Shown here one piece after another: positions 10,663 to 62,095 of a stretch of DNA of 64,000 nucleotides. The stretch comes from an uncultured Alphaproteobacteria bacterium (GTDB lineage Bacteria; Pseudomonadota; Alphaproteobacteria; CAAHEQ01; UBA3637): contig CALXVS010000004.1 of the NCBI GenBank assembly GCA_944392145.1, positions 5,833 through 69,832 of the forward strand, written 5' to 3'. Each line of letters begins with the position of its first letter. Positions within the stretch are counted from its first letter, which is position 1. The position numbers and the translations under genes were made by a program. The notes beneath the pieces were generated by a model. It was given only the letters and a program-made list of their open reading frames with translations, made no database searches and was not told where the DNA came from.

Positions 10663-10677
10663 GCCCCTTTTCCCACC

Positions 10678-11448: not shown

Positions 11449-11621
11449 ATCTTATCCCATTCTTTTTTCTTACCTGCATCGCCTCTCATTTAAGCTTACA
11501 GCAAAAAACTGATACTGGTAAATACTTGAATAATCCTCTTTACCGGCGCTTTCACCCTTTGAGCTCAAACAAACAACTTTTTTCATATTTTTTATTTCTA
11601 TCAGCAACATCCTTATCCCCT

Positions 11622-12392: not shown

Positions 12393-12401
12393 TTTCTTTA
12401 C

Positions 12402-13601: not shown

Positions 13602-14260
13602 TCTACCCCCCCATTACCCGTTTCAGGCGCTTTTAGGGCATCGCCAACATTATATTGAATGGCACTGCTTTGAATAGACTGAGCCGCAATATCAATCAAA
13701 ACAGCCGTATCCCTTGCCAATTGAATCGTTGACAAAGACAAAACCGTAATCATATCTTTTTCCGTTGTGGCGGTCTGAATCCGCTGGTTCAGTTGATTTA
13801 TCTGATCTGGCAATTGTGCAGCACTCATTGAATAAACCCACGCATTGGCCAACCCTGTCATTCCCAGTTCTTTTTCGGCGGTGGCCTGATTTGTCCGAAC
13901 CGACTTCATCTGAGACATATCAACCTTTGACGTATCTTTGGGAACTTGCATGTTTTCTTTAATATTTGCTTTGGCAACGGCCGGATTTTTTTTATCTTCC
14001 GCACTAACACCGGGCACTTCCGGTTCGGCGGGTTCCAACAACGACTCTTTTAAAAAATCTATCCCGGGAACACCCAATTTCCCCAAACTATTTAAAATAC
14101 CGGCCAACGTTTGATCCAATGCTTGGCGCTTGGCTTCATTTCCCATTTCTGATGCCTTTTGCCCCGAAATTTGAACCAATGCTTGTGAATCCTGAACATT
14201 TTGGGCATAAGAAGGGAATCCCAACAAAAAAACAGCTAACGCGATTATGACTTTCTTCAT
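13598..14260 (-). CDS. Secreted protein (~220 aa), unknown
   Basis: Probable start MKKVIIALAVFLLGFPSYAQ; the ORF-track start further upstream looks like an extension. ATGA overlap with the neighbouring gene. Confidence 0.3.
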   Translation of the reverse strand: MKKVIIALAVFLLGFPSYAQNVQDSQALVQISGQKASEMGNEAKRQALDQTLAGILNSLGKLGVPGIDFLKESLLEPAEPEVPGVSAEDKKNPAVAKANIKENMQVPKDTSKVDMSQMKSVRTNQATAEKELGMTGLANAWVYSMSAAQLPDQINQLNQRIQTATTEKDMITVLSLSTIQLARDTAVLIDIAAQSIQSSAIQYNVGDALKAPETGNGGVE

Positions 14261-14634
14261 GAATCGGTATTCTCCTTTGTCGCAGTAACAGCACTTAAGG
14301 CACTGGTTGCCTCCATATGCGCTTGATATGCTATCAAGGTGAAAAAATCTATTTCCAACCACAAAAGTGTGATATCTGCCCCCGTCAGTGCCTTTAAAGC
14401 ACTTCGCTTATCCGTAGAAGCATTCTGAATATCCTGCTGCACTTTTTCCGAATTTCCCAAATACTCTTTGGCTAACTCGGAACGATTCAAAGCCTGTGCC
14501 AACGCTTCGGCAGTTACCTCTTTTGTATCGGGCAACTCGGAGGTTTCTTCCGTCTTTGTTTGAGCGTAAGCAACACCCGCCGACAAAAGAACCACTAATA
14601 TGATCCAAAATCTCCCTCGCATTACACTCACCAT
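14257..14634 (-). CDS. Secreted small protein (125 aa), unknown
   Basis: Signal peptide (ILVVLLSAGVAYAQT). Confidence 0.3.
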   Translation of the reverse strand: MVSVMRGRFWIILVVLLSAGVAYAQTKTEETSELPDTKEVTAEALAQALNRSELAKEYLGNSEKVQQDIQNASTDKRSALKALTGADITLLWLEIDFFTLIAYQAHMEATSALSAVTATKENTDS

Positions 14635-14945
14635 CCGGCAGCATCCTTAGCGGAACTACCCGCTGACGACAATGAATCAGTTGCCGATCCACCTCCAGTC
14701 GTCAATCCGGTTGAACCCAACACACCGTTCCCCGACATAGTCCCAGCAGTTCCCAACCCCAACCCTGTGTCTACACCTGTTGCCAACGTCGCAGTTTGAA
14801 TAACTTTTTGAGCGGAAATGCTGGCAATACCGTCTAATGTCAAGGGTAATTGATCATATCCAACAATCGGTACCAGCGCCCCTGCTGACATACTTTTAAA
14901 AAGTATAATCAAAAATACGCCCCAAATACCTTGCTTTAATGTCAT
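14628..14945 (-). CDS. Small hydrophobic Gly/Thr-rich protein (105 aa), first gene of the T4SS-associated operon
   Basis: N-terminal hydrophobic segment, then a GxG-rich tail. RBS-like AGGAGG upstream at ~14950. Confidence 0.3.
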   Translation of the reverse strand: MTLKQGIWGVFLIILFKSMSAGALVPIVGYDQLPLTLDGIASISAQKVIQTATLATGVDTGLGLGTAGTMSGNGVLGSTGLTTGGGSATDSLSSAGSSAKDAAGW

Positions 14946-15019
14946 GGGCAGGCCTCCTTTTTTAACGTTTATCTTTTCTTTTTATTATACCCCATTTTTC
15001 AAACGGCGCAAGTTTTTTT

Positions 15020-31489: not shown

Positions 31490-32539
31490 ATGTCATTTTT
31501 AAAACAACTGAAAAATAAATTGTTTGTTACGGGTGCTTTCGTTGTAGGGGCTTCTGTCGGTTCAATCGGTGCCGTAAAAAAAAATGCACCCGAGTCTGCG
31601 TCATCAGTTCAAACCGCCACTGCACCGCAAAATGCCACAAAAAAAGAGGCCTTAATTAAAGCTTTCATGGCAACAATTGACAAGTTTGAAGGAATGTCTC
31701 TACATCCTTATTTGGATACAAAAGGGAACTTAACCATCGGATATGGTCAAAATATTCAATCGGCAGCGGCATTCGCTCAAGTTCGGTTTCAAGGGGATGC
31801 AAATATAAGCGACACACGCATTTCCCTTATGGAAAAACGAGCAAAATTTATGAATACTGTCACCAACTGGAAAACCATTCGGCAAAAAAACGGGCATTCA
31901 ACTAAAATCTTTAATGTAACAGCCACTGGACAAAAAGACATTTTCGGATCTGTTCGCATTACAAAAGCGGAAGCCAAACGATTATTGAAAAATCATCTGG
32001 CTGCCATTTTACCGGTTTTGGAAAACAATTTAAAATCCCAAAAATTGGATTTATATGCTTTGCCAATAATGGCACAAGTAGTCTTGTTGGATATTCACTA
32101 TAACACCGGCAATACGGCACCGGCGAAATGGCCCGCCCTGTATCAAGCATTAAAAGCCGGTGACTGGGAAAAAGCCGCCCGTGAATCCGCCCGCAAAGAT
32201 GTTCAATCCGCCCGTAATTTATGGGCGGCACGACAAATGCGACTGGCGGGGTTAACCCTTGAACTAAACCGTGCCGGCATTTCCTATGAACAACTGCCTG
32301 TGCCAACACGTGATGTAGTCAATTATATGTCAGCAATTTTAAAAAATCGTCTGACGGCACAAAAATGGCCCAAATTTTTTGATGCCCTTAAAAAACAAAA
32401 TTATACGGCCGCTGCCGCCGAATGTCGTATCCGCGGCATACCCGAGGCTAAAAACATTTGGATGAAAGAGCGCATGCTTGAAGCGGTTGCACCAAGTACA
32501 ACACAAACATATTATTTAAATCGGACTTGCTCCCGATAA
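31490..32539 (+). CDS. Secreted phage-type (GH24-like) lysozyme-domain protein with C-terminal extension
   Basis: Signal/TM, then 'IDKFEGMSLHPYLDTKGNLTIGYGQNI' (lysozyme catalytic block). Confidence 0.55.
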   Translation: MSFLKQLKNKLFVTGAFVVGASVGSIGAVKKNAPESASSVQTATAPQNATKKEALIKAFMATIDKFEGMSLHPYLDTKGNLTIGYGQNIQSAAAFAQVRFQGDANISDTRISLMEKRAKFMNTVTNWKTIRQKNGHSTKIFNVTATGQKDIFGSVRITKAEAKRLLKNHLAAILPVLENNLKSQKLDLYALPIMAQVVLLDIHYNTGNTAPAKWPALYQALKAGDWEKAARESARKDVQSARNLWAARQMRLAGLTLELNRAGISYEQLPVPTRDVVNYMSAILKNRLTAQKWPKFFDALKKQNYTAAAAECRIRGIPEAKNIWMKERMLEAVAPSTTQTYYLNRTCSR

Positions 32540-33789
32540 CATTCGGAGGACCCATGGCAAAAACATCTTCCATTTCTCCCAAAAAACAGCAAGATCAACT
32601 AACCGATCAATTATATTTGGCTGTTCAAACAAATAACGTAGCAGCAGCCGCTCGGTTAATTGAGCAAGGTGCCGATGCCAAGTGGTCGCATACATGTCGT
32701 TTTGATAAAGGGGATACGAAACCGAATGAAAGTTTGCTCAGCATCGCACTTAACAATAAAAACACAGACATGATGCGCTTGTTAATCAAACATGGGGCGA
32801 ACACAAAATTCCGCACCATTGCCGGCATTGTTCAAACGAATGATAACGAAATAATTGTTCAATATGAATCCTTATTACGCCAAGCTGCCAAAATAGATGA
32901 TCCTGTTTTTGCCGAAATTTTGATAAAAAACGGAGCCCCGATCAACGATGAAGAGGCGGAAGGGGCAAACGGTACAGCATTGTTTGATGCCGTGGCGCAA
33001 GGATGCCTAAAAACAGCGGCACTTTTGCTTGAAAACGGGGCACATCCGGGGGCATGTGCTTTACCAACACGGGAATTTATGAACGGTCGTTTTAATATGC
33101 GTCAAATTCCTTTAGGGGAAGCCGTGCGCCGTGGCGATTATGACATGACCTGCCTTTTATTACATTATGGCGCTGCCCAATATATCAATGATGATATTCG
33201 CACAACTTTAATCCATTTGGCGGCAGAGGGAACAAATAAACCTCTTGAAGCGATGTTGTTGGAAACACCACAGGATTTAAACGAAGCCTTTCAATTAATT
33301 CAATTCCGTAACCCCGATTGGGCACGACATTTAATCAATAAAGGGGCTCAAATCGGTTTCCCCGTTGATATTGGCAAGTGTCAGGAAGAGTATTTTATGG
33401 GACTGCAACAAGTTCCCGTCCAAATTGCATTGACCAGTCCCTTGGCCCGTGCCATCAAAGCCCAAAAATATGATATTGCCCGCTTGATGATCAAAAAAGG
33501 GACCAATTTGAATGTGGATGACTTAATCCATTTACTTAAAACAAAAAACTTTGATACTTTTTCAAAGGTTACACGCGGCAACACGCCCCTTTTAAAACAT
33601 CATGGTCATTTGTTTTTAAAAACCGTTCACCGTTTAATACATCCTCCTTACGAGCGTCGGCCGGATAAAAAAGCAGCCTTGTTTTATAAGTCATTATCCC
33701 GTAAAATAACGCTTTTAAATAAAAAAGAGGTGCAACATCCGTTATCCCGAAACACGGTGCAACAAAAACGGTTAAAAGTGCGTGAATAA
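32527..33789 (+). CDS. Ankyrin-repeat protein (420 aa), effector candidate
   Basis: Multiple 33-aa ANK-like units (…LLIKHGANTKF…, …ILIKNGAPINDE…GTALFDAV…LLLENGAHPG…). Confidence 0.6.
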   Translation: MLPITFGGPMAKTSSISPKKQQDQLTDQLYLAVQTNNVAAAARLIEQGADAKWSHTCRFDKGDTKPNESLLSIALNNKNTDMMRLLIKHGANTKFRTIAGIVQTNDNEIIVQYESLLRQAAKIDDPVFAEILIKNGAPINDEEAEGANGTALFDAVAQGCLKTAALLLENGAHPGACALPTREFMNGRFNMRQIPLGEAVRRGDYDMTCLLLHYGAAQYINDDIRTTLIHLAAEGTNKPLEAMLLETPQDLNEAFQLIQFRNPDWARHLINKGAQIGFPVDIGKCQEEYFMGLQQVPVQIALTSPLARAIKAQKYDIARLMIKKGTNLNVDDLIHLLKTKNFDTFSKVTRGNTPLLKHHGHLFLKTVHRLIHPPYERRPDKKAALFYKSLSRKITLLNKKEVQHPLSRNTVQQKRLKVRE

Positions 33790-33797
33790 AAATATCA

Positions 33798-34340
33798 TTA
33801 TGGTATTTGTTCTAAATCACACTTACCCGCATCACGAAAAAAATTATAAATCGTTTTAGAACTGACTCCCAACACACGGGCGATTTGTGTTTTGGGTATG
33901 CCGTTTTCATGCATGCGTAACACATCCTTGACCTTTCCATCCAAAACATGAATCTTGTTCTTACTTTCGTTCCGCCGTCCCAGCGGTCGGCCCTTGGCTT
34001 TTAAACGACGCAAAGCTTCTTTTGTGCGCTGACTGATAAATGTGCGTTCTATCTCGGCAACAAGCCCGAATGCAAAGGCAAAAACCTTGCTTTGAATATC
34101 CGTCCCTAACTTATAATTATCTTTAATCGTCCAAATCTGAATCTCTTTTTGCATACACAAATGCAAAAATGTCATAATTTGAAATAAATTACGTCCAACG
34201 CTCGTTTTTCAAAAGATAAAGCCCCACTGACCGTTTCCATAACCCATTCATCAATGCAAATATCCTGTCGTCGGCAAAAATTCTGAATCTCAAACCGTTG
34301 ATTCTCAAGCGTTTGTTTATCCGTACTGACACGCAGATAT
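33798..34340 (-). pseudogene. Frameshifted small serine recombinase (resolvase/invertase)
   Basis: Manual translation: N-part MIYGYLRVSTDKQTLENQ… (catalytic Ser) ends at a stop after 59 aa. C-part in a different frame = ORF 33798-34175 with 'GLVAEIERTFISQRTKEALRRLKAKGRPLGR' and an HTH domain. 59+125 aa = normal resolvase length. Confidence 0.6.
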
Positions 34341-35115
34341 CCGTAAATCATACTTTTTCTCCAATATATATAAAATGTTCAATCTTATATATATGAATAC
34401 CCACCCCTAAATTGCAAATACTCCGGATAAAATATTAAATATCAATAAAGGTAAAAACAAAAATCCGGTATTTTTGGCGGTTCAACCATATTTAAAAACA
34501 ACTCTCATATAACCATATATATTTATTATTAAAAATTAAAAACAAACGTCTGCTTATTTTGATTTTTTTTAGAACAATAGATTAATAATTTTTAAATGTA
34601 TTAACGAATATAAAATGATCCACTGAAAAAAATCAACAGGTAATTTTTTTTAAATAAAGACATCCTTATTAATTATAAAAGCTCTTTATCTTATGACATT
34701 ATCAATCTTTCTTTGATAATAATTAAATTTTATACCCTATAATAATGGAAAGAAGGATAATACAATTCCCCTGTCGTATTTTGGTATAATTAACGAAAAA
34801 ACAATCAATATTTTTGTCAAATCTTTACAAAAAAAGTGATTGATAAAAAAAGAAAAATATGTTTAAATGAAAAAAATAACATCGACTCAAAAGAAATATC
34901 TCGAAAACCAGAAAAACTTTTTAAAAACAAAGGAAGTATAAAAACATGAATGAAACCGACCAACGTATGGTTAAAATATCGGGTATGTTAAATCGGGGAG
35001 GAATACCTGTAACCGACATAGCAAGTTAGCCGGTTACGATGAATCAATATTGTGTGAACAAGATTTGAAAAAAATGATACAGATTAAACTATATAAAAAA
35101 TCAAAAAGAATATGT

Positions 35116-35670
35116 GTTATGAGTATTCTGGTTATTTTATTTTTTGAATTTTTTAAAATTGCTTTGTTGACAATCGGCGGCGGATTAGCCATGATTCCGG
35201 CCATTGAAGATGTTTTTGTTAACAAAAGGAAATTATTAAAAAATTCAGACATTTTAGATATGGTGGCTCTGACACAGAGCGTCCCCGGTTTAATCGCCAT
35301 TAATTCAGCGGTATTTGTAGGACATAAGTTAGCCGGATGGAAAGGAAGCTTATCGGCGATGCTGGGTGTTATCTTCCCGTCCATTGTCATCATTATACTG
35401 ATAGCCATGTTTTTCCCTTTGCTTCATTTGGAAGATAAACATTTACTAAAAGCTTTTAATTGTATTCGCGCCTGTGTCACGGGAATATTTGTTGTTTTGA
35501 TGGTAAAAATAGGCAAAGCTGTTTTAAAATCAAAATCAGAAACAATCATTGTGATTTTGTTGACCCTTTGTTTATTAACTGATATCAGTAAGGTTTGGAT
35601 TATTTTAGCAGCCTGCCTGTTGGGGTATATGGTTTTATTTCTATCAGAACAAACAGTGGTAAAAAAATGA
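35116..35670 (+). CDS. Chromate/sulfate transporter ChrA family, N-half (short CHR)
   Basis: 'ALLTIGGGLAMIP…' CHR signature. ATGA-overlapped with a second half-gene. Confidence 0.65.
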   Translation, partial: VMSILVILFFEFFKIALLTIGGGLAMIPAIEDVFVNKRKLLKNSDILDMVALTQSVPGLIAINSAVFVGHKLAGWKGSLSAMLGVIFPSIVIIILIAMFFPLLHLEDKHLLKAFNCIRACVTGIFVVLMVKIGKAVLKSKSETIIVILLTLCLLTDISKVWIILAACLLGYMVLFLSEQTVVKK

Positions 35671-36251
35671 TAAGCATTCTGTTATTTATCAATTTTTTCA
35701 AATTCGGAATTTTATGTTTCGGGGGCGGTTATATGATTATTCCGCTGTTGTATACCTCTTTTGTTAAAGAGTCAAAGCTATTTTCAGCAGAAGAATACGG
35801 GAATTTATTATCTATTTCACAGGTTACACCGGGGGCGGTAAGTATTAATACAGCAACATATGTGGGATATCTGGAAAATGGTATCATCGGAGGAATCAGC
35901 GCCAGTTTAGGGCTTTGCATGCCGTCTTTTATTTTGGCTATATTGGTTTTAAATTTTATGAAAAAATATAAAGAAAGCCTCTTTATTCAAGGGATACAAA
36001 AAGGAGCAAAATGGGCGGCTTTTGTCATGGTTGTCTTCGCGATTTGTTTTTTTGCAAATATCTCCATATTCAAAAATCCTGTTAAGACAGAAGACTTGGG
36101 AAATATTCTTGCTTCTTTTTCACTATCCAATCTCCGTTTATTTGAACTTTTTATTTTAATTTTAACGATTGTTTTATCACATTATAGAGTTTCCTTTATG
36201 GGGCTTATTTTATTTTCCGGAATCGTCGGATGGGGATACAGTTTTATATGA
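35667..36251 (+). CDS. Chromate/sulfate transporter ChrA family, C-half (short CHR)
   Basis: 'ILCFGGGYMIIPLL…' signature. Paired with 35116-35670. Confidence 0.65.
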   Translation: MISILLFINFFKFGILCFGGGYMIIPLLYTSFVKESKLFSAEEYGNLLSISQVTPGAVSINTATYVGYLENGIIGGISASLGLCMPSFILAILVLNFMKKYKESLFIQGIQKGAKWAAFVMVVFAICFFANISIFKNPVKTEDLGNILASFSLSNLRLFELFILILTIVLSHYRVSFMGLILFSGIVGWGYSFI

Positions 36252-36366
36252 TTGGGATTTTTATTCACGCGATGGTATCTGCCGGAGCAATTTATTGTTT
36301 CATGAATCATCAAATATATTATCTCCGGTGTTATCGGACAATTAATTAAGGAGTGTCTCAAATATA

Positions 36367-37242
36367 ATGGAGAATGCATTGAAAAATCACTTAATTGAAC
36401 TTGAAAACGAGTCTCTTGAATTAATCAGAGAGGTGTGTTTTACAAATGACTTTGATAAAATCGTTGTTTTGTATTCTATCGGAAAAGATTCTTCCGTATT
36501 ACTGCATTTATTTCAAAAGGCCTTTTACCCTTTTCCGATTCCCGTTCGCTTTATGCATATTGATACCGGTTGGAAGTTTAAGGAAATGTATACGTTCAGA
36601 GAAAAAATCAGTAAAGATATCAATCTGATTGTTTACAAAAATCCCGAAAATTTAAATCCGTTTACGGACGGATCTCGGTATACAGAGATTATGAAAACGG
36701 AAGCATTAAAGCAGGCTATTGAACAATATGGTTTCAAAATCGCTTTCGGTGGAGCACGACGGGATGAGGAAAAAAGTCGTTCTAAAGAAAGAATGGTTTC
36801 TATCCGTGATAAATATCATAAGTGGAATCCCAGAAATCAAAATCCTGAAATATCTCCGCTGTGGAATACGTATTATACAGAAGAAACGGAATTACGAGTT
36901 TTCCCATTATCTAATTGGACGGAATTAGATATATGGGAGTACATCAGACAGGAAAACATAAACGTTGTGGATTTGTACTTTGCGAAAGAGAGAAATGTTG
37001 TAAAAACACCCTCCGGTATGTATATTGCGACACAAGATAAGCATAAAGGAGAAAAACGCTCTGTTCGCTTTAGAACGCTCGGATGTTATCCGTTGACCGG
37101 TGCTGTTGAATCCGAAGCAAAAAATGTGGATGACGTTATAGAAGAATTAAAAACGGCAAAATATACCGAACGTATCACACGTGTCATTGACTATGATACG
37201 GAAGGTTCTATGGAAAAGAAAAAAAAGGATGGGTATTTTTAA
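36367..37242 (+). CDS. cysD: Sulfate adenylyltransferase subunit 2
   Basis: PAPS-reductase/ATP-sulfurylase small-subunit blocks ('[15 protein letters not shown]', '[10 protein letters not shown]'). Confidence 0.8.
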
Positions 37243-38453
37243 TGGATAAGATTTTTTCTTTTATATGTTGCGGAAGTGTTGATGACGGAAAATCTACGCT
37301 GATCGGCAGATTATTGCTTGATTCGGGAAACGTAAAAATTGATCAGCTGCAAGAGGCAGAAAAAATATCTAAAAGAAACGGCTCAAACAGAACGGAATTA
37401 AGCCTGTTATCTGACGGCCTGTTAAGTGAACGGGAACAACAAATTACAATAGACGTTGCACACCGTTATTTTGATTATAACAATATTCGTTTTCATATTT
37501 TAGATTGCCCGGGACACAAACAATACACAAGGAATATGGTCATTGCCGCGGCCATGACAAATACGGCTCTTTTAGTGGTTGATTGTATGGGAGGTATTCA
37601 AGAACAAACACTAAAACATATTGATATCTGTTCATTATTAAGGGTTCAAAATCTGTGTATTTGTATTACAAAATGTGATTTACTGCAGGGAGATTTGCAA
37701 GACAATCCGATTCTTAAAAACCTTTGTAAAAAAATTGAAACCCTGATGAAAAAGTATAATTTTAACTATACAATCATACCGATTTCTTCTGTCAGCGGTT
37801 ATAATATTGATAAGGTTTTTAACCAAATATATACTTATGCGCAAGAAGTTTTAGAGACACAGAATAAAAAATGTATTTTACATATCCAAGCAGCTCGATT
37901 ATCAAAGGATACTCGTTTTTATTATGCCAGGGAAACAACTCATACGTCTCCTGAAAAAGGAGAGAATTATACCTTATACCCCGCAAATATCGGCGTCGGA
38001 ATCAGTAACGTAACCGGTCATGGTGTTTTTAATATTGATTCAGATATTGATGTTGAAAGGGGTGATTGTATTACAAATACCCCTGTTCTTGTTCATAACA
38101 TCCTAAAACAAAAAACGATTTGGTTTAATGAACCATCCGAAGATATGTTACTGAAACATGGAACCAGAATCGTTAAAATTAAAAAATATACCGATGATTT
38201 AATTGAAACGGATGATGTTATCATTTTTAATGACATTGATGATATCAAAGAAAACGGATTTGCCGTCATTATTGATAATAAAACAAAAAGAACAATCGGA
38301 TGTTGTGTCTTTATTGATAACAAAAGAAGCAATCAACAAACGACAACACATAAAAATGAAGATGAAAGCAAGAAACAAAAATTAAAAAGTATATTAGCAA
38401 GTCAGGGATTTTCACAAGCTGATATTAATAAAATGATTGCGAGCATCAAATGA
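37242..38453 (+). CDS. cysN: Sulfate adenylyltransferase subunit 1 (GTPase; no APS-kinase domain)
   Basis: G1 'GSVDDGKST', G3 'DCPGH', G4 'TKCD'. Translationally coupled to cysD. Confidence 0.7.
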   Translation: MDKIFSFICCGSVDDGKSTLIGRLLLDSGNVKIDQLQEAEKISKRNGSNRTELSLLSDGLLSEREQQITIDVAHRYFDYNNIRFHILDCPGHKQYTRNMVIAAAMTNTALLVVDCMGGIQEQTLKHIDICSLLRVQNLCICITKCDLLQGDLQDNPILKNLCKKIETLMKKYNFNYTIIPISSVSGYNIDKVFNQIYTYAQEVLETQNKKCILHIQAARLSKDTRFYYARETTHTSPEKGENYTLYPANIGVGISNVTGHGVFNIDSDIDVERGDCITNTPVLVHNILKQKTIWFNEPSEDMLLKHGTRIVKIKKYTDDLIETDDVIIFNDIDDIKENGFAVIIDNKTKRTIGCCVFIDNKRSNQQTTTHKNEDESKKQKLKSILASQGFSQADINKMIASIK

Positions 38454-39046
38454 GATATATATTGTTTTTTCTGTATCTGCTGTTTCCATTCTGTGTGAAT
38501 GCCGATATTTCTTACATTACAGAACCGTTTGACAGGGAAAAATGTAAAAACGGAATGGCGGATCGTTGGGATAATGCATGCAAATGTCCAAATTTTTCAG
38601 AGTATGACGGTCAGTATTGTGATAAAAAAGAAATGAAACAATGTAAAACAAATCGAGATTGCCCAAACGGATCTTATTGTTATCTTGTTAACCAAGAGGG
38701 CGTATGTCATGAATTAACGGTATATGCTCCTGTTTTATACAATCAGAAAAAATTTTTTCTTTCCGGAGAAATTTTAAATTTAAAATCCGCAGATAATTTA
38801 TGTTCTGCCTTAGGTGCTCGTTCCTTAACAAGAGAAGATTTGGCGTGTAATCGGAGTGGTCCGGGATGTCTTGATACGGATACGATTATTCATTTACAGG
38901 AACATGTCGGAATTTTAGGATTTTATTGGTTGGAAAATGAAAGAAATAAATTTTATTATTTTGATATCAATGACGGAACCGTCTACTTTTTAGATAAGGA
39001 TTCTATCAGTCATATGCAGGCAATTTGCATTCTTGAGGACAAATAA
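38450..39046 (+). CDS. Secreted Cys-rich protein with DUF1566/C-type-lectin-like C-terminal half (198 aa)
   Basis: Signal peptide. 12+ Cys. '…ADNLCSALGARSLTREDLAC…GFYWLEN…AICI' resembles the C-terminus of the 28193 protein. Confidence 0.4.
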   Translation: MRYILFFLYLLFPFCVNADISYITEPFDREKCKNGMADRWDNACKCPNFSEYDGQYCDKKEMKQCKTNRDCPNGSYCYLVNQEGVCHELTVYAPVLYNQKKFFLSGEILNLKSADNLCSALGARSLTREDLACNRSGPGCLDTDTIIHLQEHVGILGFYWLENERNKFYYFDINDGTVYFLDKDSISHMQAICILEDK

Positions 39047-39047
39047 A

Positions 39048-40769
39048 ATGAAAAAATTTTTCATAATTATCGCATTATTATCAGGCTTTGCCATTCTATC
39101 GTTTTTCTATTTACAATTTGGTATTATTTCAAGTTTAAATATAAAAGTTAATCCATATGGATTTTCCCCTTTAACGGCATTAATTGACATAGAAACCAAA
39201 ATACCGACATCCGTTTTTTTAAGAGTAAAGGGGAAAAACGGGGTTGCCGATATTACAAAAGAATTTTCCGATTTGACAACAAAACATAGTATTCCGGTAT
39301 TGGGATTATATTTAAACCAGGAAACTGATGTCATTTTGACCGTAAAAAACAAAAATTTTTCAAAAGAAATTCCTTTAAAATTAAAGACAAATTATAAAGT
39401 AAGACTCCCTGAAATACAAATTGAAAAACAAACATCCGAAAAAAATACTTATTATTTTTTAGATGAAGGCTTAATCATTGATGAAAATGGAGATGTTCGT
39501 TTTATTTTTGATAAACCGAAAAATAGAATTAAATATTATATGAATGGTGAAATTATTACAGAGAACCGAATTAGCGGTATTATGCGCTTTGATTTATTGG
39601 GCCGTAACATTCGAAATTATCGTTATCCGAAAGGATTTACTTCATTTACCCATGGACTGGGGATTAAACCAAACGGCAATTTATTTGTAATAGGTGGTTT
39701 TTCAAATAAATCTCTTTTATATAACGGTGAATGGGTTCCTTCCCACCGCGAATTCGTCATAGAATTGGATGCCATAACAGGGGAAGTTGTCAATAAAATA
39801 GATTTGGCAGAAAGATTAAATCCTTATCGTTCAGAAATTGTTTCAGCCCCTTGTATTGATTACGGTATCAGTGATTGGTGCCATATTAACGGTGTAGATT
39901 ATGATGCAACGGACGACAGTATTGTTATCAGTTGTCGGCACTTCGGCATGTCTAAAATTGATCTTAAAACAAATAAATTAAAATGGTTGATTACACCTAA
40001 TATCGGTTTAAATATTTCCGGACGGGATGGTAAAAGCGGAGATATTTCAAATAAAGTTTTAACTGCAGTTGACTGGCAGGGAAAACCGCTTCCGGATGAT
40101 TTCCAAAAAGGACTAAAGGCTGATAAAGAATTCAGATGGCCTACAAAAAATCATCATCCTTCCGTCATAGATGGAAAATATTTTTCAATTTTCAATAATG
40201 CCGGAAATGTCTTTAATAAAAAAATATCATCAACAACCGATGCCAATGCGTTAATTTATTATGTAGACGATAAGGAAAATACAATTAAAAATATCTTTCA
40301 GTATCAATTAAATTTTCCATCGTCTGCGGCCGGGGCCGTAACTTATATACCGGAACAAAATACTGTTACAATTTATATTGCGGATGCACAACGTGAGAAT
40401 GACCAACGTTTGACAGATGGATATATTTATGTTATTGATTTTTCCTCTTATGAAATTTTGTTTAAAGCAAGGATCCATAGGGGTGGAAAAAATTATTTTT
40501 ACAAAGCAACACCCTTCAGTTGGTATACGGATGACGCTTTAAAAGTAATATCCGATATACATCAAGATAAAGAAACTTATCTGTATTTTAATCACAAACA
40601 TTGGAATGATTTTGTGTCAATAAAAAATGATAAGTTAATTAGAAATAATGGCGATACCGCTCGTATAATATCCAGAACGGATAATGAGATTACCGTTAAA
40701 TGGGATAAATACGGCACGGAAACTTTTGTGAAAGATGACTTGGGATATAGTTTGAAACAGAATAAATAA
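39048..40769 (+). CDS. Periplasmic arylsulfate sulfotransferase (ASST family) beta-propeller protein
   Basis: Signal anchor. Conserved '…DWCHINGVDYDATDDSIVISCRHFGMSKIDLKTNKLKW…' block typical of AssT. Immediately after cysDN. Confidence 0.6.
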   Translation: MKKFFIIIALLSGFAILSFFYLQFGIISSLNIKVNPYGFSPLTALIDIETKIPTSVFLRVKGKNGVADITKEFSDLTTKHSIPVLGLYLNQETDVILTVKNKNFSKEIPLKLKTNYKVRLPEIQIEKQTSEKNTYYFLDEGLIIDENGDVRFIFDKPKNRIKYYMNGEIITENRISGIMRFDLLGRNIRNYRYPKGFTSFTHGLGIKPNGNLFVIGGFSNKSLLYNGEWVPSHREFVIELDAITGEVVNKIDLAERLNPYRSEIVSAPCIDYGISDWCHINGVDYDATDDSIVISCRHFGMSKIDLKTNKLKWLITPNIGLNISGRDGKSGDISNKVLTAVDWQGKPLPDDFQKGLKADKEFRWPTKNHHPSVIDGKYFSIFNNAGNVFNKKISSTTDANALIYYVDDKENTIKNIFQYQLNFPSSAAGAVTYIPEQNTVTIYIADAQRENDQRLTDGYIYVIDFSSYEILFKARIHRGGKNYFYKATPFSWYTDDALKVISDIHQDKETYLYFNHKHWNDFVSIKNDKLIRNNGDTARIISRTDNEITVKWDKYGTETFVKDDLGYSLKQNK

Positions 40770-40865
40770 AAAAATTGCCTTGACAGTTTCTCGGCGTTCT
40801 TTCGTCCGCCGATGCCTGTGGCCGAACCTACTTTCCCGTAGGTTCAAATCAACTTCCCAATCCAT

Positions 40866-40899
40866 AAAAAAAGACAGACAATAAGTCTGTCTTTTTTTA
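40866..40899. terminator. Bidirectional Rho-independent terminator (AGACAGAC-aata-GTCTGTCT flanked by A/T runs)
   Basis: Perfect 8-bp stem, 4-nt loop, T7 run downstream and A-run upstream. Marks the end of the low-GC sulfation island. Confidence 0.6.
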
Positions 40900-41338
40900 T
40901 GGTCGGGGTTAGTAAGATAAAACCGAAAAAAATATACACTTTTTCTCACTAACTTTTTTCATAAGTTTAATCTACTTCAGAATTTTGTAATTTACAATAC
41001 CATTTTTTTATTTTTTGACTGATACCTTGGATTGTTCATAACTATCTAAGTTAGATGATAACTCTTTTTTTGAATAAGTTTTTTATTTATTTTCAATGAA
41101 TTATAAAATAATCAAAAAATTTTTCACCTGTTTGGTACTTTTTTGCCTCCTTGTGGATTTTTACCTTTCGAAAGGAGGTCAAAATGACCCTAGCAGAAAA
41201 TTTAGTAAAAACCATACTGCCGGAATTTTTAACATATTTAGATAAGTTAGAAAAAGGCGAAATAGTTGAGAAAGAACTGGATATAAATAAAAATCCAAGC
41301 ATTCATAGCGATGTAAACAAATCGAAAGGAGTCGAAAA

Positions 41339-41749: not shown

Positions 41750-42142
41750 ATGGAACAGAAAACAATCAGATGTGCAGTATACACTCGTAAATCAACAGAA
41801 GAAGGGTTAGACAAGGAGTTTAACACTTTAGAAGCTCAACGAGAGGCTGGTGAAAACTATATCAAAAGCCAAAAACAACAAGGTTGGATCTTGCTTCCAC
41901 AGCATTATGATGATGGTGGTTATAGCGGTGGCACATTAAAACGTCCTGCCCTTCAAAGTCTATTGTCAGATGTGCAAAATGGTAATGTTGATATGATTGT
42001 TGTTTATAAAATTGACCGCTTAACCCGTTCTTTGCTAGATTTTTCACAACTGATTAAAACGCTTGATGCACATAATTGTTCTTTTGTTTCTGTTACACAA
42101 AATTTTAACACTTGCGATTCCATGGGTAAGCCGCCATTGTGA
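41750..42142 (+). pseudogene. Large serine recombinase, N-terminal catalytic domain only (130 aa, truncated)
   Basis: 'CAVYTRKSTEE…GYSGGTLKRPALQSLL…DMIVVYKIDRLTRS' resolvase-domain signature. Ends after 130 aa where portal homology begins. Confidence 0.6.
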
Positions 42143-42792
42143 ATGCAATGATTGCCGCATTTATTGAAACGCCGATGGATAATGAAGGCTTAAACGAACT
42201 GTTCGGTGGTTCAAGCGACGAATACTTGAATGCCAAAAAAGATTGGCAGGTCAAGTTAGAGGGTGGATCGATTATTCCGATATTCCCCGGAGATAAGGTC
42301 GCCCCATTTACCCCGTCTCGCCCGAACTCGGCATATGGTGCTTTCGTTGAAAACTTGCTCCGACACATCGGAACCGGATTAAACATTCCGTATGAGTTGC
42401 TGTTAAAAGACTTCTCAAAGACCAATTATTCGTCCGCTCGTTCTGCTTTATTAGAGGCTTGGCGATATTTCAACGGCCACCGGCAATGGCTGTCCGATTA
42501 CTGGGCAACACCGGTTTATGAACTATGGCTTGAAGAAGCTGTCAATAAGGGACTGGTTGATGCTCCGGACTTTTATGAGAACCGCTACGCATATACAAGA
42601 TGTAAGTGGATCGGTCCGGGTCGTGGTTGGGTGGATCCTGTCAAAGAGGCACAAGCCTGCCAAATCCGAATGGAGATAGGACTTTCAACATTAGAGGCCG
42701 AATGTGCCGGTCAAGGCTTGGACTGGGAAGAAGTTTTAGAGCAAAGAGCAAGAGAAAAGGAACGTATGAAAAAACTTTTTAACGAGCGTTGA
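42139..42792 (+). pseudogene. Phage portal protein (lambda gpB-like) C-terminal fragment
   Basis: C-terminal '…WIGPGRGWVDPVKEAQA…' block typical of lambda-family portals. N-terminal ~300 aa absent. Confidence 0.5.
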
Positions 42793-48203: not shown

Positions 48204-48243
48204 ATCCGAAAGGATCAAAAAAGGGAAAGTTGATAATGCGTAT

Positions 48244-48362
48244 TGTGCCTCTTGGTCCGCGTCTTCAAATGAAAATGAAAACGTGCGTTGCGTCAACTAT
48301 AAGGACGATAAGAACTGGAATAACACGAATAAACGTAAAATCTCGGCGCGCCCCGATTTGCT
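48244..48362 (+). repeat. DGR template repeat (TR), 119 bp
   Basis: Matches 49868-49986 with ~21 mismatches, ~20 of them at TR adenines. 3' GC-rich 'TCTCGGCGCGCCCCG' IMH*-like end. The overlapping ORF 48169-48561 is regarded as spurious. Confidence 0.85.
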
Positions 48363-48610: not shown

Positions 48611-49690
48611 ATGACGATGAAGATTGAAGAGATATTTACATTTGAAAACCTGGTTGCGGCTCATAAAGCGTGTCGGCTGAGCAAGCAACATAAACGGGGA
48701 ACAATCATGTTTGAAATTGAGTTGGGGCGTAATGTCACCAATCTGGTCAAACAATTGACGAATAAAACATATCGTTTAAGTCCTTACAGATCCTTTACCA
48801 TTTATGATCCGAAGAAAAGATTAATTGAGGCTTTGCCTTACAAAGACAGAGTGGTTTTAATGTGCTTTTGTCAGCATTCGGTAGCTCCCCGGCTAGAGAG
48901 ACACCTTATTTATGATAATGCCGCCTCACGCAAAGAAAAAGGGACGCATTTTGCGGTGGATCGATTGCATTCATTTATGCGAAAGCTGTACATCAAAAAC
49001 AAAACAAATCGGATTTATTTTTTGAAATGCGATATCAGGAAATATTTTCAAAGCATCAATCATGAGATTTTACTGGAACAGTTGGCCAAAGTCGGTTTTT
49101 CGGCTGATGAGATGTGGTTTTTAAGGATGATTATTGAATCACACGGCTCTATCGGATTGCCCTTGGGTAATCAGACCAGCCAATGGTTTGCCTTGCTGTA
49201 TTTGAACGGAATGGACCGGCTGATTAAAGAACGCCTGCGTATGCTTTACTATGTGCGCTATATGGATGATTTTGTTATCCTAAGCGAAGATAAATCTAAA
49301 TTACAGTTATGCAAACAACAGATTGATGAATATGTTAAAGGGCTGAAGCTCTCCTTAAATCAAAAGACACAAATCGGGCTGTTATCGGATGGTATAGATT
49401 TTTTGGGATTTAACCACAAATTATCGGCCACCGAAAAGATTATTAAATCTCTGCGCGGATCGGCCAAAAGCCGCCAAAGAAAATACCTGAAAGCTATCCG
49501 TCACTACTATTTGAATGATGTTCTTGATGATGAGTACATAGACGTCCGTTTAGCCTCATATCGCGGGCATTTAAAGGGCACTAAGAACTGGCTACATATC
49601 TGCAACCGCTTGACCTCCTTGAAACACGAGAAACGTCGTACAAAAAAATTGTTGCAGAACAATAAATTGTATGATATACTGGGAGTATAA
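48611..49690 (+). CDS. DGR reverse transcriptase
   Basis: 'IFTFENLVAAHKA', 'YRLSPYRSFTIYDPKKRLIEALPYKDRVV', 'LGNQTSQWFALLYL' (DGR-type SQ motif), 'YVRYMDDFVIL' (YxDD), 'GIDFLGF'. Alignable with Bordetella phage bRT. Confidence 0.9.
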   Translation: MTMKIEEIFTFENLVAAHKACRLSKQHKRGTIMFEIELGRNVTNLVKQLTNKTYRLSPYRSFTIYDPKKRLIEALPYKDRVVLMCFCQHSVAPRLERHLIYDNAASRKEKGTHFAVDRLHSFMRKLYIKNKTNRIYFLKCDIRKYFQSINHEILLEQLAKVGFSADEMWFLRMIIESHGSIGLPLGNQTSQWFALLYLNGMDRLIKERLRMLYYVRYMDDFVILSEDKSKLQLCKQQIDEYVKGLKLSLNQKTQIGLLSDGIDFLGFNHKLSATEKIIKSLRGSAKSRQRKYLKAIRHYYLNDVLDDEYIDVRLASYRGHLKGTKNWLHICNRLTSLKHEKRRTKKLLQNNKLYDILGV

Positions 49691-49709: not shown

Positions 49710-51659
49710 ATGGGCTTTACGTTTTTGAAGGAAGATCAGATATGGGGCGATGATGCCCTGGATGTAATGAAACGTTATGGTACGAAGGTTGCGCCAACGG
49801 ATCTGACAGTCATATTGGGTGGTTATATGACCGGTGGTGGTGATCGTACTTCTGAAGATGATCTAACTTGTGCCTCTTGGTCCGCGTCTTCGAATGATTA
49901 TGGAGACGTGCGTTGCGTCTACTGTTTGGGCGTCCAGATCTGGAATGACGCGCATAAGCGTACGATCTCGGCGCGCCCCGCTTTGCCTCCATCGGAGGCA
50001 TCTAAAATCAGCCCGAGCGAAGCGAGGGCTATCGCTGGAATCCGCGTAGCGGAATATGGGGAATACCCGCAAACGGTCGCCGATGAGCGCACCAGTGCAA
50101 AATTAGAAAAATTACATGATTCAAGATCTCTCCGTCCGACCGGAAAAAATTACACATTTGATTCAGTTGATTTAGGCGATTATGGCACGTCTTTTAAGGC
50201 CACATCCTATCAGGAATATGAAATGGATGGCAAAAGGTATATCCGTGTTCCTGGACGGCCTGCTGACGGCGATAGCAAGCTATCTACAGGTGAACAGGTA
50301 GAAGAAGGAAAGCCATACTGGGTTGAGGTCCAACCGATAGAATGGCTGATGGATAGAAGCGGCACAATGGTCGCCAAAAAATGCTTATTCGCCGGTATTC
50401 AATTTGATACGAAAGATTCATATGATGGCGGCTTTTCCAAAACGTCCATAAAGCACTATTTGGACACTTATTTTGCCAAAGAAATGGAGCCGACCGGACG
50501 TGTGGCCGCAAGAACGGTATCAAGAGACTATGAAGAAGAGCCGGAAAGAAAAGAACCCGTTAAAAAGAAAGAACCGACAGCCAGACAGAAGAAATACGGG
50601 ATCGAGGTATCTGATGAGCCTATGCCCGTCAAAGACCAAATAAACTTCTATATTCAAAACGGAATGAGCTTCATGCTCCATGGCCCGTCCGGTGTCGGTA
50701 AATCACAACGTGTGAAAGAAATTGATCCGGATTTGACCTCAATTACACTGTGTAACGGAATTTTGCCTGAAGATGTTATCGGTAAAACAATCTATCCAAA
50801 CGGCGTGGGAGCCGATGGGGCCTCCGGTGGTGTTTGGGTGCCGCCTAAGTGGTACACGGATTTGTGCAGAAAATGCGAAACAGAACCGGACAAACAGCAC
50901 GTCTTATTTATCGATGAAGTGACCAATGCGCGTGAAACAACACAAAGTTTGATCTATCACGTAGCGTTGGAAAAATCAATTGCCCAGGGCGTTGGCAAAC
51001 TGCCTAATAATGCTGTGGTCGTGTTGGCCGGTAACAGCAAGGAAGAATCAGGAGCCGCTTATAACATGCCGGCCCCGTTGTTCAGACGTTTAAGCCATAT
51101 TTACTTGGACTTGAATATTCAGGATTGGTTGGAATGGGGCTCGGAACACAGCAAGAGCCATCCGGAAGATCCGGATCGCTTAAACATCCATCCGTTAGTC
51201 GCCAGTTTTGTGGCAACCTACGGACGGCAAGTGTTCTATTCCGAGTATGATGAAGAAAACCCCGGTAAGTTTGCTCTTGACCCACGAAAATGGGAAAAGG
51301 TATCAGATAAAATCTATGCCAATAAGGGTGTGATGCGCCGTGAGATTTTGGAAGCTGATATCGGGCCTGAATTGGCGGCCAGTTTATTGTCATATGCTAA
51401 AAATCCGCCGCTATCTTTGGAAGAAGTGATTGAGGGCGAATATACCCGCGAGGATATTCCTACGGGACAGGATGCCCGTTTGGCGTTGGCGTTGAGTTTG
51501 CGTCATGCAACACCGAAACAAGTCGGAAAAGTACGTCAATTTGTTGAAACACAGTTAGGCGCAGAAAATCGTGCGATTTTTGACTCTGTTTGGGTGGGCA
51601 AGGATGATACACGCGCCATGCAGATCGCCACTCTACATAACTTAAAGGGAGGAAGATAA
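49710..51659 (+). CDS. DGR target protein: N-terminal variable region fused to a MoxR-like AAA+ ATPase (649 aa)
   Basis: Strong RBS AGGAGG. VR encodes aa ~53-92 ('CASWSASSNDYGDVRCVYCLGVQIWNDAHKRTISARP'). Walker A 'GPSGVGKS' and Walker B 'VLFIDEV' further downstream. Confidence 0.75.
   Translation: MGFTFLKEDQIWGDDALDVMKRYGTKVAPTDLTVILGGYMTGGGDRTSEDDLTCASWSASSNDYGDVRCVYCLGVQIWNDAHKRTISARPALPPSEASKISPSEARAIAGIRVAEYGEYPQTVADERTSAKLEKLHDSRSLRPTGKNYTFDSVDLGDYGTSFKATSYQEYEMDGKRYIRVPGRPADGDSKLSTGEQVEEGKPYWVEVQPIEWLMDRSGTMVAKKCLFAGIQFDTKDSYDGGFSKTSIKHYLDTYFAKEMEPTGRVAARTVSRDYEEEPERKEPVKKKEPTARQKKYGIEVSDEPMPVKDQINFYIQNGMSFMLHGPSGVGKSQRVKEIDPDLTSITLCNGILPEDVIGKTIYPNGVGADGASGGVWVPPKWYTDLCRKCETEPDKQHVLFIDEVTNARETTQSLIYHVALEKSIAQGVGKLPNNAVVVLAGNSKEESGAAYNMPAPLFRRLSHIYLDLNIQDWLEWGSEHSKSHPEDPDRLNIHPLVASFVATYGRQVFYSEYDEENPGKFALDPRKWEKVSDKIYANKGVMRREILEADIGPELAASLLSYAKNPPLSLEEVIEGEYTREDIPTGQDARLALALSLRHATPKQVGKVRQFVETQLGAENRAIFDSVWVGKDDTRAMQIATLHNLKGGR
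49868..49986 (+). repeat. DGR variable repeat (VR) with IMH at the 3' end
   Basis: 119-bp partner of TR. In frame in the target gene. GC-rich 'TCTCGGCGCGCCCCGC' terminus differs from TR by one base. Confidence 0.85.
49985..49999 (+). promoter_or_regulatory. GC-rich hairpin (GCCTCC-atc-GGAGGC) immediately 3' of the VR
   Basis: Equivalent position and shape to the hairpin/cruciform element that enhances DGR retrohoming in Bordetella phage. Confidence 0.5.
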
Positions 51660-61297: not shown

Positions 61298-62095
61298 CTA
61301 TTTTTCAACAGATTTTTTTGAAATTAATGTAGAATAAATAGTAGCTTGTTGGTTGTCTTTTTTATCATAAGTAGAACAAGAGTTTTCTTTTAATAGTTGT
61401 AAAATCTCAGGATCTTGAGGCATATATTGGCCTGTTTTTAAATCTAATCTATTTTGGTAAAGATGCATTGCTTGTTCAGAAGAACGAGCACCTCCATTGA
61501 TTAAGGCTTTTATTGTATGTTTATCTCCATAACGAGCCGCATGCATTAAAAGAGAAGTGCCGTTAGTGTCCGTTTCATTTACATCAGCTCCTTTTTTTAT
61601 AAGAGTTTCAAGAATTGGCGTTAACTCAGGTTTACCATGTGCGGCAATAATAGCTAAGTACAAAGGGGATTGGTTCATATGATTTTTTTTATTAGCTTGT
61701 GCGCCAACATTCAACAATGTTTCAACAAGCTGTGATTTTCCATTCAACACTGCTGCTGTCAGGAGTGTTTGTCCCCACCCATTCTTAATGTCATTTAGTC
61801 CGGGAGCTGTTAGATGTTCTTTTTCAATATGGTGTATAGGAATATTTTTCACGCCGTGATCTGTAAGTATTTGATATTGCCATTGATCTAAAGGAAATGT
61901 CGGTTGATTGAAGAAATCAATTCCATCAAAAGATTGAACTAGTTTTGTTTTTTCGGATTGTTTTTCCGCCGCCTGAGCTGTTTGTGTTTCTAAAGAAAGG
62001 GCCGCAGCTCCAATTAGAATCGTTTTTTTTAATACATCTTTTAAGGACATATTTCCCTCCTTCTCATAGTATAACACAAATAAAAGTATTTTCAA
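61298..62095 (-). CDS. Secreted ankyrin-repeat protein (265 aa)
   Basis: Signal peptide (…AAALSLETQTAQA). ANK units ('GQTLLTAAVLNGKSQLVETLLNVGAQAN', 'GTSLLMHAARYGDKHTIKALINGGA'). Confidence 0.6.
   Translation of the reverse strand: MKILLFVLYYEKEGNMSLKDVLKKTILIGAAALSLETQTAQAAEKQSEKTKLVQSFDGIDFFNQPTFPLDQWQYQILTDHGVKNIPIHHIEKEHLTAPGLNDIKNGWGQTLLTAAVLNGKSQLVETLLNVGAQANKKNHMNQSPLYLAIIAAHGKPELTPILETLIKKGADVNETDTNGTSLLMHAARYGDKHTIKALINGGARSSEQAMHLYQNRLDLKTGQYMPQDPEILQLLKENSCSTYDKKDNQQATIYSTLISKKSVEK

Follow-up and report, generated by a model that had tools for sequence, protein, structure and literature searches.

A predicted periplasmic arylsulfate sulfotransferase shares a conserved gene module with kinase-less CysDN, anion permeases and a lectin-like protein in uncultured gut Alphaproteobacteria

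The DNA analysed here (hereafter the window) is a 64,000-nucleotide stretch of contig CALXVS010000004.1 (positions 5,833 to 69,832 of the forward strand) from the assembly GCA_944392145.1 of an uncultured Alphaproteobacteria bacterium, and its positions 35119-40769 hold a translationally coupled operon of six genes: chr1, chr2, cysD, a cysN-like gene, a gene for a lectin-like protein and a gene for an arylsulfate sulfotransferase (ASST). All six lie on the + strand. Specifically, the two halves of a short-chain CHR (SCHR) permease, of 183 and 194 aa (35119-35670 and 35667-36251; PF02417, 135 and 123 bits), are followed by CysD, the small subunit of sulfate adenylyltransferase (36367-37242, 291 aa; TIGR02039, NF003587), a CysN-like GTPase subunit (37242-38453, 403 aa), a secreted Cys-rich protein (38450-39046, 198 aa) and a predicted membrane-anchored periplasmic ASST (39048-40769, 573 aa). 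The frames overlap by 4 nt between chr1 and chr2, by 1 nt between cysD and the cysN-like gene and by 4 nt between the latter and the Cys-rich gene, which is followed by the ASST gene after a gap of 1 nt. A preliminary description of this DNA, made from the letters alone, had reported a single orientation with overlapping start and stop codons, and this is confirmed by the 1-4-nt overlaps and spacings; its gene content is likewise correct, including CysDN without CysC. The gene set recurs in more than 20 related uncultured gut Alphaproteobacteria despite rearrangement, which bears out the idea that these genes belong together.

The ASST matches PF05935 with 182.9 bits (cutoff 24.2) and PF17425 with 59.2 bits, and phmmer aligns it with 3ELQ, the E. 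coli AssT, at E = 6e-28. The residues H252, H356, N358, R374 and the sulfo-histidine H436 of E. coli AssT, in a numbering checked against the H436N entry 4P04, align to identical residues in the motifs FTH, WCHIN, SCRH and KNHH; in window numbering, H202, H279, N281 and H369 are invariant across 23 homologues, and R297 is found in at least 90% of them. The AlphaFold2 (AF2) model, with a pLDDT of 85.7, has an N-terminal helix (residues 2-24), an Ig-like domain, a beta-propeller and an extra C-terminal beta domain, and Foldseek places it closest to 3ELQ and 3ETT (E = 1e-27, TM 0.68-0.70) and next to Cpz4 (9KF6, E = 7.5e-12). With the catalytic residues conserved and the E. coli ASST fold recovered at this TM score, the protein is a genuine member of the family, and its earlier assignment holds. 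Its N-terminus, MKK followed by a 19-residue hydrophobic helix, predicts export to the periplasm.

The window ASST and E. coli AssT, which is encoded in assT-dsbL-dsbI, share PF05935 and the Ig-like PF17425, the same fold and an extracytoplasmic location, but they are only ~20% identical, and the window protein differs in being membrane-anchored and in lacking the C418-C424 disulfide and the Dsb partner genes: no Cys occurs at the positions aligned with C418-C424, and no thioredoxin-like gene is present in the operon. Conversely, it carries two clade-invariant Cys beside the catalytic His and Arg (WCHIN, SCRH) as well as the extra C-terminal beta domain, and it has the lectin-like protein as its partner and a genetic link to cysDN and to a permease. 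The DsbL/DsbI partners and the disulfide mark the enterobacterial assT operon rather than the ASST family. The extra beta domain (aa ~510-569, 40560-40769) is absent from most orthologues, which have ~500 aa, and a similar domain (39-40% identity) stands at the N-terminus of the ASST in two other loci (L022, 10001-10153; L024, 10001-10174); the change of terminus indicates that the domain has been shuffled.

The secreted Cys-rich protein is built of a signal peptide, an invariant EGF-like C-x11-C-x-C-x10-C module, a variable Cys-rich insert and a conserved C-terminal domain of ~110 aa. A Foldseek search with its AF2 model (pLDDT 89.3) returns as top matches only C-type-lectin-like domains (CTLDs; LLT1, CD72, LOX-1; TMt 0.55-0.66), with modest E-values, and the DUF1566 domain of Legionella Lcl (PDB 8Q4E) at rank 27, so the C-terminal domain is modelled as having a C-type-lectin-like fold. 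Pfam gives no match above threshold (Lectin_C, DUF1566), and a profile of the orthologues searched against PDB sequences finds only CD72, at E = 0.16. The lectin-like, DUF1566-like secreted protein of the preliminary description thus stands at the level of the fold and of the predicted signal peptide, but not as a sequence match to DUF1566 or Lectin_C. The protein shares the fold of its C-terminal ~110 aa with the known CTLDs, Lcl included, and differs from them in its lack of significant Pfam or PDB sequence matches, in the added N-terminal EGF-like four-Cys module and in belonging to a tiny family restricted to this gene context: exhaustive searching with HMMER yields 28 relatives in a set of 1.84 billion representative proteins, and a word-based homologue search returned only the protein itself.

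Twenty-two alphaproteobacterial loci were retrieved with an ASST profile; the species of the window is not among the GTDB representatives recovered. A homologue of the Cys-rich protein (30-41% identity) lies directly upstream of the ASST gene in 20 of these 22 loci, making it the most constant neighbour of the ASST and its core partner, and not a gene inserted between the others as had been supposed. Two further roles were considered for it and rejected: as a substrate of tyrosine sulfation, given that the acidic SEYDGQY motif is not conserved, and as a Dsb-like or formylglycine-generating enzyme (FGE)-like maturation factor, given that it has no thioredoxin fold and that no FGE occurs among its fold matches.

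The two CHR halves each match PF02417 over model positions 3-166 of 166 and are 36% identical to each other; chr1 has at least four hydrophobic segments and a pN/pS of 0.12, and the scores of the pair with the NCBIfam ChrA/ChrB equivalogs (45-74 bits) are far under the cutoffs of 250. Paired short-chain CHR proteins are a normal arrangement, and both halves of the B. subtilis pair are required for function (PMC2751784), so that the "split" ChrA-family transporter first reported at this site is not borne out: these are two genes with one CHR domain each. In B. subtilis, YwrA/YwrB are likewise encoded by adjacent genes for ~190-aa proteins with single CHR domains (PMC2751784); in contrast to them, the window pair sits with sulfate activation instead of chromate resistance, and its chr2 orthologues are repeatedly fused to an extracytoplasmic EGF-like/lectin-like domain. 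Specifically, the lectin-like domain is fused in frame to the chr2 C-terminus in at least seven cases, L016, L026, P0070, P0074, P0079, P0080 and P0081 (the last five being 50%-identity cluster representatives), and begins right where the final transmembrane helix of this CHR half ends, which places the chr2 C-terminus in the periplasm and the lectin-like domain at the mouth of the permease. Since the lectin-like gene is always coupled to the ASST gene and is fused to the permease elsewhere, its product is best seen as an adaptor or substrate-binding element that would join the ASST and the permease.

The permease itself is exchangeable. CHR proteins alone are encoded in 9 loci (the window included), a TauE protein alone in 8 and both in 3 (L008, L011, L027); at least one permease is present in 19 of the 19 loci containing cysDN, and none is found in the three loci that have only the ASST and lectin-like genes (L007, L013, L028). 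The ~750-bp gap between the ASST and cysD genes of relatives was considered as a hiding place for cysC, and the gene found there encodes a TauE/TSUP permease.

Across species the recurrent set can be written as [chr, chr] [TauE] lectin-like, ASST, [TauE], cysD, cysN, [DUF4352, second ASST paralogue], with brackets around the genes that vary. A cysDN pair adjoins an ASST-family gene in the window and in 18 other loci, in two types of cysDN, with two types of ASST paralogue and in shuffled order and strand. Cluster-type cysDN lies directly downstream of the ASST gene in 12 loci and canonical cysDN is on the opposite strand in 4 (L016, L019, L023, L026); in L016 the canonical pair shares an operon with the DUF4352 gene and the second ASST paralogue, and in L049 and L050 the cluster-type pair is linked to this second paralogue. 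The window has cysDN upstream of the Cys-rich/ASST pair, whereas all loci of the genome scan have it downstream, and only L049, which is not from that scan, shares the window order; in L049 a family 2 glycosyltransferase (GT2) gene lies between cysN and the ASST gene, inside the operon. None of cysC, cysH, cysI, cysJ and cysK was found in the 64-kb window or in ~25 related neighbourhoods, so that, within this local scope, the view that this cysDN pair does not belong to a normal cys regulon is upheld.

CysD scores 371.9 bits with NF003587 (cutoff 195) and 378.1 with TIGR02039, slightly below the cutoff of 396.6, contains the SIGKDS motif, is 71-77% identical to the orthologues of the cluster and has a pN/pS of 0.08. 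The CysN-like subunit has a G domain closest to that of CysN 1ZUN_B (E = 1e-38), with the motifs G1 GSVDDGKST and G3 DCPGH and, as G4, TKCD in place of NKxD, a replacement that is invariant in the subfamily. Its match to TIGR02034 (193 bits against a cutoff of 336) covers aa 6-200 only, and PF22594 and PF03144, which would mark CysN domains II and III, are not detected in it, unlike in the canonical CysN of L016 and L019, although the region is conserved within the subfamily. This subfamily is sharply separate, its members being 44-58% identical to the window protein and canonical CysN 31-35%.

A C-terminal APS kinase domain (the enzyme that converts adenosine 5'-phosphosulfate, APS, to 3'-phosphoadenosine 5'-phosphosulfate, PAPS) with an intact Walker A motif is present in 14 of the 76 subfamily members, which are 531-538 aa long, and missing from 62; the window protein has no PF01583 match and no second Walker A. 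The tails of the kinase-less proteins align to the start of the kinase domain of their relatives in a degenerate and truncated form, with the P-loop GLSGAGKT replaced by NTSDKEKE, ICAREK-GD or VKSGED, and the last ~40 residues of the window protein (about 38335-38453) are all that it retains of a decayed APS-kinase (CysC) domain. A neighbour-joining tree built on the sulfurylase core, without support values, groups 60 kinase-less proteins in a single clade to which the kinase-bearing forms are basal, and on this ground the kinase was probably lost once, about when the cysDN pair became tied to the ASST. Indeed, 15 of the 15 kinase-less CysN examined are linked to an ASST gene, a linkage that persists through divergence to ~44% identity, and none of the five kinase-bearing CysN examined is, with no ASST, CHR or TauE gene within 8-10 kb. 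As the kinase domain has decayed, the module is predicted to make APS and not PAPS. In the loss of CysC from CysNC, the decay of a domain is cleanly tied to a switch of pathway partner.

The kinase-bearing forms occur in a standalone context, cysD-DUF2061-cysNC (L044-L048; DUF2061 not called in L044), where the DUF2061 gene, encoding a membrane protein of 72-79 aa, overlaps both cysD and cysNC in 4 of the 5 loci; this gene is absent from the ASST-linked versions of cysDN. In L046 each gene occurs twice, the copies being arranged as mirror images on either side of two divergent GGDEF/HD genes; this looks like a palindromic assembly artefact. A cysC within the 588-aa CysN of L019 and L023 was ruled out, as these proteins have no kinase domain. 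In L023, the gene immediately adjoining the canonical cysD, at 7987-8421 (- strand), encodes a protein of the HIT family; some HIT proteins act on adenylyl-sulfate-type substrates.

The operon is distinct from its surroundings in composition. Its GC content is 0.336 (0.319 to 0.361 for the single genes) against 0.446 for positions 1-33790, and in 1-kb windows GC is 0.29-0.36 across 34-42 kb and ~0.44 upstream, confirming the low-GC segment originally described. The left edge, an AT-rich tract with a frameshifted resolvase, is confirmed as well. The AT-rich leader and presumed promoter region (34352-35118, + strand, 767 bp) has a GC of 0.243; it has no Rfam match and no riboswitch or known RNA was found in it, promoter-like sites are no commoner there than in shuffled sequence, and a 27-codon open reading frame (ORF), MNETDQRMVKISGMLNRGGIPVTDIAS, preceded by the ribosome-binding-like site AAGGAAG, lies in it just upstream of chr1 (34947-35030, + strand). 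To the left of the leader is the inactivated gene of an Mpi-family small serine invertase/resolvase (33798-34351, - strand), read as two ORFs of 59 and 125 aa, both matching NF009949, the best model, and PF00239. Its frameshift is an exact 64-bp deletion near 34196, relative to the intact alleles of L001 and L034; the deletion is polymorphic, 7 of 16 strain contigs (L001, L032, L034-L036, L038, L039) encoding an intact invertase of 202-206 aa and others an allele split in a second way (122+59 aa). In L008 and L027, too, a related invertase is found close by, so the recombinase may travel with the module. A phase-variable promoter driven by this invertase was considered and rejected: only short AT-rich imperfect repeats, with no convincing inverted repeats, are found in the leader, the invertase is null here, and no inversion is seen in 16/16 collinear strain copies, with the proviso that assemblies show only the majority orientation and a rare inversion could escape.

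At the right edge, two GC-rich hairpins lie just 3' of the ASST stop (40777-40845, + strand), the first of which (40777-40822) is kept across all strain types, and are followed by a bidirectional intrinsic terminator (40862-40902) with perfect arms of 18 nt, a loop of 5 nt, an A-tract and a T-tract. The strong terminator of the preliminary description is thereby confirmed; it was not picked up by a consensus terminator scan, the folding energy of 40765-40900 is -47.1 kcal/mol (z = -8.6), and L003 has a different but analogous hairpin at the same position. An impression of a tRNA-like element at 40824-40850 did not hold up.

The order pyrG, lysozyme-like gene, ankyrin gene, invertase and then the six genes is the same in 16 metagenome contigs at 99-100% identity, and every contig with an identical pyrG carries the cluster at the same site. 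Synteny between strains is lost 60-80 bp beyond the ASST stop codon, either at 40827 or at 40847, inside the second GC-rich hairpin or immediately behind it, and only to the right of these breakpoints is the DNA strain-variable, with at least three different right flanks. That of the window is a decayed prophage or mobile element: right of the terminator, 41750-42792 holds a DUF2924 gene, a large serine recombinase shortened to 130 aa and the C-terminal third of a portal protein of lambda type, all left over, at the strain-variable junction, from the integration of a phage-like element. A strain-variable island is ruled out by the presence of the cluster at the same site in 16/16 strain contigs, and an att or tRNA integration site by the absence of tRNA in the window and of flanking direct repeats. 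The claim of an island therefore survives in the GC anomaly but not in structure, the operon being fixed in all 16 sampled strains with no att repeats and no tRNA. In other species the GC of the cluster differs from that of its flanks by at most 0.043, mostly by less than 0.025, because those genomes themselves have a GC of 0.32-0.40. The relatives of the ASST, CysN-like and Cys-rich proteins all come from the same group of uncultured gut Alphaproteobacteria metagenome-assembled genomes, which rules out a foreign donor phylum, and the sole matches beyond it are three weak ones in Polyangiaceae. The search for a donor lineage, which had been suggested at the outset, thus points to a lower-GC relative, but within this same group; most simply, one of its lower-GC members passed the operon on horizontally, and it then became fixed.

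The lysozyme-like and ankyrin-repeat proteins between pyrG and the invertase (31490-33789) are present in every strain, an ankyrin protein is also encoded beside the cluster in L008, and a second ankyrin-repeat gene of the window lies at 61298-62095. Genes of a type IV secretion system occupy ~1-15000 (- strand), with two VirB8-like genes, one CagX/VirB9-like gene and a giant TrbI/VirB10-like gene (~2294 aa) with RHS-like repeats that runs off the window start; the housekeeping genes lptD, surA and folD adjoin them. The ankyrin-repeat genes and the secretion system suggest a host-cell-interacting lifestyle. Lastly, within the prophage remnant a 119-nt imperfect repeat (48243-48361 and 49868-49986) brackets an RVT_1 reverse transcriptase gene (48611-49690), and nearly all of the ~20 mismatches between the copies fall at adenines of the upstream copy, a pattern that marks a putative diversity-generating retroelement, with the upstream copy as the probable template repeat and the variable repeat in the ORF at 49710-51659.

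ASSTs occur widely among gut bacteria and pathogens and have found use as biocatalysts. Dedicated sulfate-activation pairs clustered with a sulfotransferase, and sometimes with a transporter, are found in NodPQ/NodH of rhizobia, RaxPQ/RaxST of Xanthomonas and cysDNC-SULT of Bacteroides, and these systems make PAPS and use cytoplasmic PAPS-dependent sulfotransferases. In the window, by contrast, the kinase is lost and the transferase is predicted to be periplasmic and of a PAPS-independent type. The fpr2-cysIXHDNYZ cluster of C. glutamicum, like the module, has a TSUP-type anion permease beside cysDN (PMC5840216, PMC1266029), but in the ~25 neighbourhoods the module has no linked APS/PAPS reductase, sulfite reductase or cysteine synthase and has the ASST and the lectin-like protein instead. 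The caprazamycin protein Cpz4, the second-best structural match (9KF6), is of the ASST type and is the only such enzyme whose physiological role, a step downstream of sulfate activation, has been established (PMC13426309, PMC4257720); its route, formed with the type III polyketide synthase (PKS) Cpz6 and the PAPS-dependent sulfotransferase Cpz8, belongs to cytoplasmic actinomycete secondary metabolism and depends on PAPS, on a transferase that uses PAPS and on a phenolic carrier made by a PKS, whereas the window encodes none of these and its PAPS-making kinase has decayed. Papers of 2025-2026 describe the natural donors, acceptors and physiological roles of ASSTs as unknown (PMC12809581, PMC13426309); the 2026 review of these enzymes (PMC13426309) and the 2025 BvASST paper give no gene-cluster context, and in a survey of Sutterella 17 asst genes stand alone with no operon context (PMC10932419). 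In the searchable literature the combination seen in this module is not described, and what was found on PAPS-independent transferases with sulfate adenylyltransferase concerns only PAPS-based or engineered systems. The parts of the module belong to known families (ASST, CysD, the CysN G-domain lineage, SCHR, the CTLD fold), and their combination is apparently new.

As to the direction in which sulfur flows through the module, an inward route of sulfuryl salvage is the most likely mechanism, although it is favoured tentatively. The families, linkage, fusions and kinase decay described above are observed, and we infer the transported species, the release of sulfate by the ASST and the fate of the APS: the ASST-lectin unit, docked on the permease, would strip sulfuryl groups off aryl or glycan sulfates of host or dietary origin by way of the sulfo-histidine intermediate, the freed sulfate would enter through the CHR pair, or through TauE in other species, and CysDN would trap it as APS for enzymes encoded elsewhere. 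The conserved adjacency of cysDN and ASST-family genes is counted in favour of this model. The presence of a permease in all 19 loci with cysDN and in none of those with only the ASST and lectin-like genes suggests a pairing of uptake with activation, and the latter loci indicate that the ASST does not strictly depend on an adjacent cysDN. Tethered extracytoplasmic binding domains, such as the lectin-CHR fusions would provide, are typical of importers. Also in favour of salvage are the low sulfur content of the ASST (1.05% Cys+Met against a background of 4.0%) and the purifying selection on all six genes among strains (pN/pS 0.08-0.34, with 0.04 for pyrG). Further support comes from the TSUP family, which includes the C. 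glutamicum sulfate importer CysZ (PMC5840216), from chromate being a sulfate analogue that uses sulfate systems (PMC2751784) and from an ASST-type enzyme that acted as a typical aryl sulfatase without an acceptor (PMC13426309). Several points weigh against salvage. The sulfur economy of the operon proteins is mixed, since neither the lectin-like protein, with 12 Cys after removal of its signal peptide, nor the CysN-like subunit, with 13 Cys, is sulfur-sparing; the GT2 gene inside the L049 operon hints at biosynthesis; and neither the window nor the ~25 related neighbourhoods contain cysH, cysI, cysJ or cysK. Characterised ASSTs move sulfuryl groups between phenols, and their sulfo-His is stable enough to crystallise (3ETS/3ETT), so that sulfate release would need a hydrolytic variant of the enzyme. 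Moreover, the gut is rich in sulfide and cysteine, and sulfate assimilation is often dispensable there. Lastly, the characterised CHR proteins are chromate exporters (PMC2751784).

The opposite direction is possible, if doubtful: cytoplasmic APS, or another activated carrier, would be exported through CHR or TauE, possibly swapped for sulfate, and the lectin-docked ASST would capture it at the mouth of the permease and use it to sulfate a phenolic or glycan of the envelope, the host or the lumen. The decay of the kinase speaks for such an outward flow, as it coincides with the linkage to the ASST (15/15 against 0/5, with the kinase-less forms in one clade) and would be expected if a PAPS-independent enzyme had replaced PAPS-dependent sulfation and left APS as the end product; the loss is a single event, however, so that the association amounts to one observation. 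As a self-contained unit the module has moved horizontally, no genes of reductive assimilation lie near any locus, GT2 stands between cysN and the ASST gene in L049, and the lectin fold, with the CTLD of Legionella Lcl among its matches, could select a glycan acceptor. Both permease types are present in L008, L011 and L027, as a pair for import and export would require, but most loci have a single type, and CHR and TSUP proteins are permeases of small anions. To our knowledge, no bacterial exporter of APS or PAPS has been described, which counts against this flow. The loci with only the ASST and lectin-like genes lack cysDN or a permease nearby, and no cytoplasmic sulfotransferase or carrier-making enzyme is encoded, which excludes a route of the Cpz8/Cpz6 type. 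It does agree with outward flow that the natural donor of ASSTs is unknown (PMC12809581, PMC13426309) and that Cpz4, the one ASST with an established role, acts downstream of sulfate activation (PMC4257720, PMC13426309). The more specific proposal, that this ASST clade uses cytoplasmic APS as its physiological sulfuryl donor, delivered by the permease, perhaps an APS/sulfate exchanger, to the lectin-held ASST, is unlikely. We know of ASSTs only as users of aryl sulfates, which weighs against sulfation fed by CysDN. The sulfation of host or envelope targets with CysDN-derived sulfate, which the preliminary description had entertained, is unsupported, as the activated donor would have to cross the inner membrane, and the parts are explained no less well by a salvage of sulfate esters.

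Two further readings need less or different chemistry. It is rather improbable that the two halves of the operon are co-regulated but separate, ordinary uptake and activation of sulfate standing beside an exchange of sulfuryl groups among luminal phenolics by the ASST and the lectin-like protein, for detoxification or the modification of metabolites, in a shared operon only because both respond to the availability of sulfur or sulfate esters. No new biochemistry would be needed, as gut ASSTs act in vitro on p-cresol sulfate, acetaminophen sulfate and similar compounds (PMC12809581), and each half is found alone, the ASST with the lectin-like protein in L007, L013 and L028 and the kinase-bearing cysD-cysNC elsewhere; yet the translational coupling of 1-4 nt spans the functional boundary, the lectin-like partner is fused to the permease, the linkage survives rearrangements, two types of cysDN and two ASST paralogues, and the decay of the kinase is limited to the ASST-linked clade. 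A chromate or oxyanion resistance island, in which the CHR pair would export chromate and its neighbours offset the interference of chromate with sulfate metabolism, is very improbable: characterised CHR proteins, including the B. subtilis SCHR pair, do confer chromate resistance (PMC2751784), but TauE stands in for the CHR pair in 8 loci, resistance genes such as chrB and chrR are missing, the bacteria live in the animal gut, and the constant core of the module is the ASST with the lectin-like protein and not CHR.

The module supplies an operon context for ASSTs, in the form of a long-conserved coupling to APS-only activation, anion permeases and a lectin-like partner, and narrows the question of their role to two opposite models that are directly testable. 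The system would be categorically new only if the outward route of APS were real; the reading of APS as the donor, if true, would mean a PAPS-independent periplasmic sulfation of envelope, host or luminal glycans and phenolics, and would give bacteria their first known route for exporting activated sulfate and a periplasmic ASST its first assigned natural donor. In either direction, the module bears on how these uncultured gut Alphaproteobacteria, with their type IV secretion and ankyrin-repeat genes, handle the host pool of sulfated metabolites.

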